Origin: a virus
Lineage: Duplodnaviria > Caudoviricetes
Direction: 5' to 3' (one strand)
IMG/VR virus record: IMGVR_UViG_3300030106_006546
Span: 1-50,358 of that record
Length of the DNA: 50,358 bases
Under the pieces are notes generated by a model, which saw only the letters and a list, made by a program, of their open reading frames with translations, was not told the DNA's origin and ran no database searches. Shown in pieces: positions 2,973 through 40,718 of this stretch. Each line of letters starts with the position of its first letter. The stretch's first letter is position 1. Made by a program: the position numbers and the translations under genes.

Positions 2973-3016
2973 ACTTTTGCACAAAAAAATATTTCAATGT
3001 TTTTTGTATAAATATA

Positions 3017-3045
3017 TTGTACATCGACACGGAATATGATTTGAT
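3017..3045 (+). promoter_or_regulatory. Rightward promoter with phage motif TTGTACATCGACACGGA
   Basis: Follows an AT-rich tract; the same motif occurs at about 20070-20087 (-) and 39362-39379 (+). Confidence 0.55.
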
Positions 3046-38464: not shown

Positions 38465-38518
38465 CTGCAATCCTCGAAAAGATTGATTGATTCTACAATG
38501 GTGCATAAAATAACACAA

Positions 38519-39232
38519 ATGTATGAAATGAAGAACTACATGCTGTCCATGCAGTCGCACTGGTTTATCAACCAACCGCTGTACAAAGCAGTACAAGAGA
38601 CGGTGCCGATGATCGCGGAATACAAAACCCGGGAAGGTGTGGACCGCCTAGCGAAGACGCCTGTCTCGGCACTTTGTAAGCGCATCTACCCCGACGTGTA
38701 TCGAGTGCCATTGTTCCGCAGACAGTTCTGTAAGATGCTGGTTGAAGAGATCGATCACATGAGGGCCGAGGGTCTATTTACACCTAACCCCGATGAAGAT
38801 GAGCTGAGACAGATCCCTGAGGTGGTGTTGCAACAAGAGGTGCCAGAGCTCTATCGCAACATGTGGTTTGTGGTCCAGAACGTGTTGAACCCCATTTTCA
38901 ACGTGCTGTATCAACGAGACTGCAAAGATGTCAATTCGATTCAGCTCGCAAACTATAACCCGCGGGACAAACAGAAAGGCGCCTGGCATCACGATGAGAG
39001 TGCCGATATCAGCGTAGTTGTGCCGCTTAATACAGATGGATATAAAGGTGGTGGCACAGAGTTTCACAACCACGGTGTGTTGAACCCGCTGCCTAGCGGC
39101 CACGCTTTGATCTTCCCATCTTTCACTAATCTGCATCGCGGTCTTGCAGTAGACTCGGGTGATCGATACTTGCTGGTGTTTTGGCTGATGGATAAAAAAC
39201 GCTTGATCGAACGATATGACAGCTTGCGATGA
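38519..39232 (+). CDS. 2OG-Fe(II) oxygenase, lysyl/prolyl hydroxylase-like
   Basis: HHD...GGGTEF...LHRG...GDRY triad; PDVYRVPLF N-terminal motif. Start codon uncertain. Confidence 0.88.
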   Translation: MYEMKNYMLSMQSHWFINQPLYKAVQETVPMIAEYKTREGVDRLAKTPVSALCKRIYPDVYRVPLFRRQFCKMLVEEIDHMRAEGLFTPNPDEDELRQIPEVVLQQEVPELYRNMWFVVQNVLNPIFNVLYQRDCKDVNSIQLANYNPRDKQKGAWHHDESADISVVVPLNTDGYKGGGTEFHNHGVLNPLPSGHALIFPSFTNLHRGLAVDSGDRYLLVFWLMDKKRLIERYDSLR

Positions 39233-39294
39233 TTTGCTGAAGAGCGCATGATCATCTCTTATCGAGTGCATAGCTTCCGCACTCTTTAACCATT

Positions 39295-39321
39295 GGGCTC
39301 CTTTTGGAGCCCTTTTTTTTT
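39295..39321 (+). terminator. Rho-independent terminator
   Basis: GGGCTCC-TTTT-GGAGCCC followed by a T9 run. Confidence 0.85.
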
Positions 39322-39361
39322 GCATTTTTTTCTACTTTTTTACATTTATTTGCATAAAAGT

Positions 39362-39395
39362 GTATACAACGACACGGGATTATGAGACTATATAC
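39362..39395 (+). promoter_or_regulatory. Putative early promoter with phage motif (GTATACAACGACACGGGA)
   Basis: Follows an AT-rich UP-like tract; shares the ACAWCGACACGG core. Confidence 0.55.
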
Positions 39396-39532
39396 ATGTC
39401 GGCGAGGGACGCATCAGACAGACCGACAGCCAGCGGGCAAAGCACTGACAACCGAGAGGCTCAGGGAATCACGACTTACTAGAGTGCACTCAATTCCGAG
39501 TGCGCTGCACTAAGTCAACGAGGAGACAAACA

Positions 39533-39877
39533 ATGAAATTTCGTACTGATTTTGTTTTTGAAGAAGCAACTAGCGTCAATCAGATGAAGAACCTGAAAGA
39601 AGCTGTGCTATTTGACGCCTTCAATCCTAACGGTCTGGTTGCTCGCAAGCGAAAAAACGACGCAGTAATTGCTCAATTGATTGATGACGGTGTTGTGCCT
39701 CAAGGCTGGTTTTTGGCTTATGGCTCTTACGCTGATCATTATGTTGAAAATATGCACAAGCTCGCCAAAAAGAAGCGAGTCAGCGGCAGAGAGCAACGAT
39801 TTGCGCGAAAGTTTTTACTTCGAGACATTGAAAATGTTGAAGCAAAAATTGCCGAGGTTGCAACACAGGCCGCGTAA
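39533..39877 (+). CDS. Hypothetical early protein (114 aa)
   Basis: ATG at 39533 after GAGGAG. Confidence 0.75.
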   Translation: MKFRTDFVFEEATSVNQMKNLKEAVLFDAFNPNGLVARKRKNDAVIAQLIDDGVVPQGWFLAYGSYADHYVENMHKLAKKKRVSGREQRFARKFLLRDIENVEAKIAEVATQAA

Positions 39878-39887
39878 GCGGCCCTAC

Positions 39888-39943
39888 CTTGACTGATGAG
39901 CCTGGTTGGTTACCAGGCGAAACGCTCTTCGGAGCGTCTCAAG
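39888..39943 (+). ncRNA. Hammerhead ribozyme (type I)
   Basis: Stem I CTTGA/TCAAG; CTGATGA core; stem II GCCTGG/CCAGGC; GAAA; stem III ACGCTC-TTCG-GAGCGT; GTC cleavage triplet at 39936-39938. Confidence 0.93.
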
Positions 39944-39971
39944 AAACCAACAACTGACCTAGGAGGTCACC

Positions 39972-40181
39972 ATGAAAACAACTTTCAACGGCTATCGAAT
40001 CACCATGTTGGCGGATGATCCTGCTGTCCGCCGTGTTGACCGGGAGGCACTTAAAAGTGCTGGTCTCGAGCGACGCTCATTTCAAAGTGAGCTGGAGGCA
40101 CAACTTGAGCTTCACATGAGTGACTTGGACGAGTCACGTTTTTACGTGTCCAAGACTTGGGCGGTGTCAGGGGTGCTTTGA
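39972..40181 (+). CDS. Hypothetical early protein
   Basis: 69 aa; AGGAGG RBS; flanked by the two hammerheads. Confidence 0.75.
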   Translation: MKTTFNGYRITMLADDPAVRRVDREALKSAGLERRSFQSELEAQLELHMSDLDESRFYVSKTWAVSGVL

Positions 40182-40192
40182 ACCGTCTTTGA

Positions 40193-40246
40193 ACCCACTG
40201 ATGAGCTGATGAGATTTCAGCGAAACGCCCACAGGGGCGTCTGGGT
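40193..40246 (+). ncRNA. Hammerhead ribozyme (type I)
   Basis: Stem I ACCCA/TGGGT; CTGATGA; stem II GCTGA/TCAGC; GAAA; stem III ACGCCC-ACAG-GGGCGT; GTC at 40239-40241. Confidence 0.93.
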
Positions 40247-40269
40247 ACATCAATTTAAGGAGACAAAAC

Positions 40270-40503
40270 ATGAATAGCACAGATCGTTATTGGAGAATGT
40301 GGTGGTCAAGCGGCGCCACCAAGCCCAGCTTCATCTACTCTGAAAAAGACCTGCGAATCGCCGCAAAAAAGTACAACTTTGATGCGGACACGGTCTTGAA
40401 TTATGGCGAGGACTACATGTGGGATGATGGGGTAACACCAAACAGTGAACCGTCAGACGATGAGATTTGGGGTGGTGTCATCGAAGAGCATGACGACAAG
40501 TGA
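40270..40503 (+). CDS. Hypothetical early protein, acidic C-terminus
   Basis: 77 aa; AAGGAG RBS. Confidence 0.75.
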   Translation: MNSTDRYWRMWWSSGATKPSFIYSEKDLRIAAKKYNFDADTVLNYGEDYMWDDGVTPNSEPSDDEIWGGVIEEHDDK

Positions 40504-40505
40504 TA

Positions 40506-40531
40506 GGGGAGCTACGGCTCCCTCTTTTTTT
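40506..40531 (+). terminator. Rho-independent terminator between convergent units
   Basis: GGGAGC-TACG-GCTCCC followed by TCTTTTTTT. Confidence 0.75.
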
Positions 40532-40718
40532 GTTTCTTCATCCTCTCAACGTACTCCAAGTACGGCTCCCCATACTTCTTCTCAAACCAGATCGCCCATG
40601 AGTATTTGCCGCTTGGCACCGTAGCACGACGCTTGTGCCATATCGCACGGGCGGCATGATACTTGATCTGCTCTGCCCATTCCCGCTCGTCTTCAGGTGA
40701 GGTCTGCAAGCCCATCAT
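40512..40718 (-). CDS. Hypothetical protein
   Basis: 68 aa; AGGA RBS. Confidence 0.6.
   Translation of the reverse strand: MMGLQTSPEDEREWAEQIKYHAARAIWHKRRATVPSGKYSWAIWFEKKYGEPYLEYVERMKKQKKREP

Follow-up and report, generated by a model that had tools for sequence, protein, structure and literature searches.

Two predicted type I hammerhead ribozymes in both intercistronic spacers of a small accessory operon of an uncultured marine tailed phage, with a likely role in transcript processing

Introduction

What would two self-cleaving RNA motifs do when they are placed, one after the other, in the spacers between three small genes of a tailed phage? The question arises from a locus in the genome of an uncultured marine tailed phage, whose complete record (50,358 bp, with direct terminal repeats) is the whole stretch of DNA analysed here and is called the window, and it was raised by a sequence-only reading in which two tandem hammerheads were seen to punctuate an operon taken to be an early one. 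Hammerhead cleavage is known to leave 5′-OH and 2′,3′-cyclic phosphate ends, a chemistry that is well established.

As for the role of these motifs, a 2019 review still describes the function of bacterial and phage hammerheads as hypothetical (PMC6765202). According to an earlier report by Perreault et al., published in 2011, three prophage clusters of hammerheads cleaved in vitro and one did so in E. coli, while the identities of the genes lying between clustered ribozymes were not constant, and a processing into single-gene mRNAs was implied (PMC3088659).

Our computational analysis points to a likely answer for the present locus: two functional type I hammerheads would occupy both intercistronic spacers of a three-gene accessory operon of about 1.15 kb, where they would cut the tricistronic RNA. 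In the following sections we describe the operon, the two ribozymes and their relatives, and we then weigh this proposal against other explanations. Viral contigs used for comparison are cited by their numbers (L001 and so on).

Results

A three-gene unit between two terminator-like hairpins

The elements of the locus are the following.

38483-39232: 2OG-Fe(II)-oxygenase-like gene, upstream of the next element
39295-39312, plus strand: intrinsic-terminator-like hairpin and T run (7 pairs, 6 of them GC, T9 tail), closing the oxygenase-like gene unit
39333-39378, plus strand: AT-rich promoter-like region, assigned by eye and position only, ending in a 16-nt motif (39363-39378)
39379-39532, plus strand: conserved leader of about 150 nt, with blocks of 82-94% identity ending at 39518-39538
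39533-39877, plus strand: ORF114, first gene, no family match, homologues of 83-89% identity in L001 and L002
39888-39943, plus strand: HH1, type I hammerhead, canonical core, GUC site, C17 = C39938
39945-39949, plus strand: AACCA, predicted pseudoknot partner (5 bp) of the HH1 loop II UGGUU (39907-39911); the homology of relatives reaches 39949/39950
39972-40181, plus strand: ORF69, conserved small orphan protein of 69 aa, with its SD AGGAGG in a hairpin (39955-39969)
40193-40246, plus strand: HH2, type I hammerhead, loop II UGAGAUU (7 nt), C17 = C40241
40270-40503, plus strand: ORF77, third gene, no family match, homologues 92-100% identical in L005, L006, L138 and L139
40506-40523, plus strand: intrinsic-terminator-like hairpin and T run that ends the unit, with convergent minus-strand genes beyond

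The unit sits between the structural block of the phage and a convergent recombination/replication block. The PHROGs assignments put terminase, portal and virion genes at 11.6-30 kb, followed by large unassigned plus-strand ORFs up to 38015, whereas the minus-strand genes past 40523 comprise a DNA methyltransferase, a RecE-like exonuclease and a kinase. Since it runs from terminator to terminator with a promoter-like region of its own, the unit can be regarded as a self-contained accessory, moron-like operon; the early expression supposed in the sequence-only reading is conjectural. The closest cultured phages, as judged by the terminase, are 023Pt_psg01 (63%) and the Pelagibacter phages HTVC027P and HTVC023P (57-58%).

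Neither Pfam nor PHROGs nor PADLOC gave a family for ORF114, ORF69 or ORF77 (a PADLOC OGG line at E 0.026 and 12 bits was treated as noise), and GenBank phages showed no match by blastn with 39400-40700 or by tblastn with ORF77. The 69-aa gene that the sequence-only reading placed between the ribozymes is nevertheless a real, conserved gene, with 11 proteins at E≤0.001 among 12 candidates, from marine metagenomes; 10 homologues measure 68-69 aa and show 77-86% identity, and no relatives were found in IMG/VR.

With regard to expression, exact copies of the 16-nt motif were found in 12 viral contigs. In most metagenome contigs position 39365 is a G where the window has T, and contig depth in four marine metagenomes is much greater over 39333-39392 than anywhere else in the stretch. 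A consensus promoter scan did not flag 39333-39378. The leader is common to L006, L136, L138 and L139, including contigs with a different first gene, and the whole of 39333-39532 may be a promoter specific to this group of phages followed by a structured 5′ UTR. A looser copy of the motif (three mismatches) is found near 3018-3033 of the window, in similar AT-rich surroundings (about 2990-3035).

Two small hairpins were also observed around the coding regions. The stop codon of ORF114 lies in the loop of a hairpin (39868-39883, GGCCGC-GUAA-GCGGCC) that is kept in L002 and L138; L002 has an ORF114 homologue and no ribozyme, and its homology to the window stops at 39883, the 3′ edge of this hairpin. 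The SD of ORF69, for its part, is found inside a 6-bp hairpin (UGACCU-AGG-AGGUCA) in the predicted folds of both the cleaved and the uncleaved RNA.

Two complete type I hammerhead motifs

Both motifs show the type I topology, in which stems II and III are closed by loops and stem I is formed by the 5′ and 3′ flanks. By direct reading of the sequence, HH1 consists of stem I (CUUGA/UCAAG), the core CUGAUGA, a stem II of 7 bp (39900-39906 with 39912-39918), GAA and a stem III of 6 bp, the first pair of which is A15.1-U16.1. HH2 follows the same order with stem I (ACCCA/UGGGU), CUGAUGA, a stem II of 5 bp, GAA and a stem III of 6 bp. Stems I, II and III therefore measure 5/7/6 bp in HH1 and 5/5/6 bp in HH2, all helices being perfect, and the hammerhead core (C3 U4 G5 A6 N7 G8 A9, G12 A13 A14, A15.1-U16.1, H17) is complete in both. 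Cleavage is predicted after C39938 and C40241, at a spacing of 303 nt, which would leave leaders of 33 nt to the ATG at 39972 and 28 nt to the ATG at 40270; the cut positions, the leaders of about 30 nt and the 303-nt unit given by the sequence-only reading were thus exact on re-reading. Minimum free energy folding (ViennaRNA) returns the three-way junction for HH2 alone and for HH1 and HH2 with their flanks, while the isolated 56-nt HH1 leaves stem I open.

A plain IUPAC pattern of the core does not discriminate (25 matches against 10.5 expected), and a base-pairing descriptor was used instead. Applied to both strands of the whole 50,358-bp genome, this descriptor finds HH1 and HH2 as the only two motifs; when run on 2000 random genomes of equal composition (first-order Markov), it yields 53 motifs with stems of at least 3/3/3 bp, 3 with at least 4/4/4 bp and none with at least 5/5/5 bp.

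A covariance model (R1) was then built from a set of 73 distinct viral type I hammerheads, of which 66 were used; the copies of the window and of its relatives L001, L006 and L136 (five in all) were set aside, as were two that exceed 66 nt. On the genome, with filters off, R1 finds HH2 at 40192-40247 (53.1 bits, E about 1e-15) and HH1 at 39887-39944 (48.8 bits, E about 4e-14), both aligned end to end, the next-best match reaching 9.4 bits. These scores are somewhat inflated, because the pattern used to scan for the seeds had itself been derived from the core and stem III of the window, so that the stem III columns of the model favour it, although the tandem partners of the seeds were free of that constraint. 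Direct reading, descriptor scan and covariance model all bear out the full catalytic core and the three stems that were initially noticed in each motif.

The Rfam hammerhead models, which had been proposed as a check, give a different picture. At gathering score, RF00008, RF00163 and RF03152 return no match in the whole genome, and in E-value mode both motifs fall below the curated cut-offs: the HH2 region is hit by Hammerhead_3 with 26.9 bits (cut-off 48.5) in a permuted register (40161-40231), and by RAGATH-1-hammerhead (RF03152) in the correct register (40193-40246) with 17.9 bits (cut-off 56.3), whereas HH1 scores a sub-threshold 15.2 bits. Over the whole genome, the E-value mode returns only the permuted Hammerhead_3 (E 0.14) and an Atu_C8 match at 39239-39328 (E 0.44), which was regarded as due to chance. 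The permuted type III alignment, which would use an upstream GUC inside the end of ORF69 and has mismatched outer pairs, was rejected as a by-product of the shared core, because L001, L006 and L139, which have another gene upstream, lack the partner strand that it needs there. HH1 and HH2 have in common with RF00163 (clan CL00010) and RF03152 the catalytic core, the three-helix junction, the open stem I and the GUC triplet, but positions 1-25 of RF03152, its 5′ part, have no counterpart in HH2. Clear type I hammerheads of phages are, then, missed by the curated thresholds of Rfam.

Conservation in related contigs

Relatives of the locus were found through the neighbouring proteins or the leader, and not through the ribozyme itself. 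The comparison covered nine distinct copies, which fall into three ribozyme types, namely HH1, HH2 and a third one, HH3, present in L006 and L136. CUGAUGA, A13, A14, A15.1-U16.1 and C17 are invariant in all nine, and G12 in eight. The helices behave in the opposite manner, as 11 of the 16 helix pairs are altered on both sides among the nine copies while 97.9% of the 144 cells are paired, compared with 22-42% in controls with slid partners. The compensatory variation that had been proposed from the different stems of the two window copies is borne out at this larger scale. As judged from the sequence, HH1 and HH2 are real type I hammerheads, conserved and well beyond chance, from which we infer cleavage.

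The exception at G12 is the HH3 copy of L006 (3148-3201), located downstream of ORF77, which reads AAA in place of G12-A13-A14; the copy in L136 (90-143, minus strand) has GAA and is otherwise identical. The change may correspond either to a decayed ribozyme, to a slow variant or to a sequencing error. Another peculiarity concerns L001, where the insert that replaces ORF69 (520-679) has only nine codons open from its SD-ATG and a longer arginine-rich frame one base off, as would be expected of a cassette that has suffered a frameshift or is decaying; the ribozymes on either side of it are intact.

The ribozymes are dispensable, as R1 finds no hammerhead in any of the four closest cultured relatives by terminase, and a match in only one of five viral records that share the promoter; the window genome itself, used as positive control, gives two matches.

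A predicted tertiary contact in HH1

Just one base past stem I of HH1 begins the sequence AACCA, complementary to its loop II. Among 30 viral type I hammerheads with a stem I of 5 bp or less, 12 have a helix of at least 4 bp between loop II and the 3′ tail that starts within 3 nt of stem I, whereas pairing the loops with the tails of other members (1000 permutations) gives 5.4 on average and never more than 11. For helices of at least 5 bp, 6 of the 30 were observed against a permutation mean of 1.7. No enrichment is seen in the 43 members with a stem I of at least 6 bp (3 observed, 3.2 expected). This permutation across sequences replaced a control by flank shuffling, which is too weak because it retains composition. 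The pairs concerned include UGGUU:AACCA (the window), UAGUU:AACUA, UGACU:AGUCA, UUGGC:GCCAA and UGAAU:AUUCA, and such a diversity of paired sequences indicates covariation. A predicted 5-bp loop II pseudoknot probably holds HH1 in its active shape. It agrees with the one that Perreault et al. found to be critical for fast cleavage (PMC3088659).

The loop II of HH2 is UGAGAUU in the window and UGAGAAU in close relatives, and a loop of this type recurs as YGAGAUY in the unrelated contigs L009, L058, L060, L091 and L101. No partner consistent across copies with the same loop was found in either flank, and a pairing with the 5′ flank, seen in the window and in L001, was ruled out since it is absent in L006 with the same loop. 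The speed of HH2 at physiological Mg2+ is for this reason uncertain.

Type I hammerheads in other viral contigs

The descriptor scan of viral contigs found 81 type I hammerheads in 56 of 125 loci, and the set reached 73 distinct sequences after further loci were added. Two to four hammerheads occur in tandem in 13 of 51 locus-strands. An ATG-initiated ORF starts within 90 nt past the cut in 64 of the 73 (median 27.5 nt, interquartile range 22-34), and in 53 the stop codon of an upstream ORF lies within 45 nt of stem I, with a median gap of 1 nt.

Arrays of two to four type I hammerheads, each of them 15-30 nt before an ATG, are present in L027, L031, L043, L067 and L071. Within each array the copies have a near-same stem I of 6-8 bp but differ in stems II and III. 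In arrays of this kind, a ribozyme could be rebuilt from the two ends of an excised unit.

Discussion

The most likely role of both hammerheads, in the order found at this locus (promoter-like region, conserved leader, ORF114, HH1, ORF69, HH2, ORF77, terminator), is transcript processing. Each ribozyme would fold during transcription and cut 3′ of its GUC, so that the tricistronic RNA would be converted into three single-gene RNAs with protected ends. The 3′ terminus of each upstream product would be the compact ribozyme fold, carrying a 2′,3′-cyclic phosphate, and the downstream products would start with a 5′-OH, 33 or 28 nt before their ATG and just ahead of the SD. The probable benefit would be that every gene acquires its own defined mRNA ends, stability and translation context, independently of its neighbours and of host RNases. 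In this scheme we infer the cleavage, the end chemistry and the physiological benefit alike, and a benefit for mRNA stability or translation is a conjecture.

A comparable principle is used in RiboJ, an engineered insulator derived from the ribozyme of a plant satellite RNA, in which a self-cleaving hammerhead just 5′ of the ribosome-binding site removes the upstream RNA context and thereby fixes the 5′ end from which the downstream gene is expressed. RiboJ is engineered, whereas the arrangement in the window is natural and its insulating effect putative.

Could the two motifs be inactive relics, or stabilising hairpins that resemble hammerheads? The Rfam scores below the curated cut-offs, the related copy with a G12-to-A change and the failure to find a tertiary contact of HH2 in either flank would fit that idea. 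We find it very improbable, however, as neither window copy has lost a catalytic position, the relatives keep these positions unchanged (G12 in eight of nine) while their stems vary, hairpins alone would not conserve CUGAUGA, GAAA and GUC, and the independent model R1 recovers both motifs at E values of about 1e-14 or lower. If the ribozymes are active, their cleavage might work, instead of as constitutive processing, as a switch that sets the relative expression of the genes, either because the uncut RNA masks the downstream ribosome-binding site or because termination of upstream translation gates the folding. The minimum free energy fold of 40182-40273 does pair GUCUU (40185-40189) with GAGAC in the SD of ORF77 (40260-40264) through 5 bp that enclose HH2, the predicted unpaired probability of this SD rises from 0.40-0.48 in the uncut RNA to 0.66-0.79 in the cut one, and L001 carries UCUCCU in the corresponding position. 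A complement of 5 bp easily arises by chance, though, and for the SD of ORF69 cleavage has no predicted effect (0.52 vs 0.47-0.53), which leaves the unmasking of the ORF77 SD as a weak lead from modelled folds. On the side of translation, a stop codon that abuts stem I, as occurs in the wider viral set (median gap 1 nt, 53 of 73), means that a terminating ribosome would cover the 5′ strand of the ribozyme, and a coupling between translation and cleavage is possible in viral type I hammerheads; in the window, on the contrary, the stop codons are not adjacent but lie 10-11 nt before stem I. We consider a switch at this locus unlikely on the whole. A different fate for the products would be circularisation, since hammerheads, by reverse ligation, and RtcB-type ligases can both join 5′-OH to 2′,3′-cyclic phosphate ends, and two hammerheads on the same strand would generate precisely these ends. 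The sequence-only reading had envisaged that the excised 303-nt unit from HH1 to HH2 could become a circle, which would then be a viroid-like or retrozyme-like RNA or else a circular mRNA of ORF69. Flanking ribozymes with a common stem I are indeed found in L138 (two HH1 copies), L027, L031, L043 and L071, and the ends could re-pair there. In the window, by contrast, the excised RNA begins with UCAAG while the ACCCA strand of HH2 requires UGGGU, so that the incompatible stem I sequences prevent the ends from rebuilding a hammerhead; moreover, the predicted fold of the 303-nt RNA leaves its first 7 nt unpaired and does not bring the ends together, and the unit has the make-up of an ordinary SD-ORF cassette, the protein of which has conserved homologues, rather than that of a rod-like non-coding RNA. 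Perreault et al. sought circular or spliced products from such clusters and detected none (PMC3088659). The circle thus finds no support in this unit and is a very unlikely fate for it, with circularisation by a protein ligase as a possible route.

The remaining alternative operates at the DNA level and is compatible with processing. The hammerheads would be portable linkers, conserved over about 55-65 bp, between SD-ORF-stop cassettes, and at or next to them small genes would be exchanged, deleted and duplicated among related phages, the ribozyme freeing each newly placed cassette from its context. Breakpoints were mapped by blastn of 39200-40700 against the relatives. In L001, homology covers 39423-39950 and 40192-40700, and what separates the two ribozymes is a different, shorter insert; in L139 it is limited to 39888-39950 (63 nt, 100% identical) and 40189-40670, with other genes on both sides of HH1; L138 has the order HH1-ORF114-HH1-ORF77, with a junction at 39950|40257; and in L006 the leader (to 39518) runs into a different gene, followed by HH2-ORF77 from 40192, with a third hammerhead and extra DNA between ORF77 and the shared terminator. 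Altogether, HH1 is seen after three different genes and before five different sequences. In contigs from four other metagenome runs, all six joints have one end within 3 nt of a module edge (39885/39888, 39949 or 40192), but in four of them the shorter side is below 30 nt, at a likeness cut-off of 85%, and such joints are unreliable. Furthermore, HH2 precedes ORF77 in four of four contigs and may simply be the leader of that gene, the coincidence of breakpoints is partly forced because mosaic junctions favour gene boundaries and ribozymes fill most of the spacers, and the recombination mechanism is only hypothetical. We retain this explanation, which is possible though short of probable, as secondary to transcript processing. 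Its strongest form, that of free-standing portable intercistronic modules or plug-and-play insulators, the DNA of which would supply short homology for the swap, duplication and deletion of cassettes, is doubtful and can be proposed only tentatively from the sequence comparisons. If it were true, any SD-ORF cassette between modules would be expressed from its own fixed mRNA ends, and the clustering of phage hammerheads around variable small genes would be explained. Our literature search found no account of phage hammerheads as mosaic or recombination boundaries, most subscription journals lying outside its reach.

Retrozymes and viroid-like RNAs also have two hammerheads of the same polarity that delimit a unit-length RNA, but their units are repeats with identical ribozymes, the ends of which re-pair, and they propagate as circles (PMC4918200, PMC7761336). 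In the window, a dsDNA phage genome, stem I differs between the two ribozymes, the unit is a cassette that encodes a protein, and nothing points to a circle. A closer parallel is offered by the clusters of Perreault et al. (PMC3088659), described as close same-strand hammerheads around single small genes, with a variable gene content and with stems I and II stabilised by a pseudoknot, as predicted here for HH1. Those cases were prophages, whereas this one is a free, complete genome in which the two predicted ribozymes are both of type I, with the addition that gene swaps in relatives have been mapped to the ribozyme edges. Of the functions suggested initially, mRNA processing agrees with the reading published for such clusters (PMC3088659), while stabilisation would be a further, conjectural benefit. 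The arrangement has been known in phage DNA since 2011, and this locus is a clean further example of it, not a new kind of system.

By itself, this locus leaves existing knowledge unchanged. It is, on the other hand, a compact and well-bounded test case, in which two ribozymes and three small genes lie between a single promoter-like region and a single terminator, and for which natural variants exist with swapped genes, a replaced ribozyme or a mutated core base. It could be used to measure whether cutting affects the mRNA half-life or translation of the flanking genes, and whether recombination favours ribozyme spacers.
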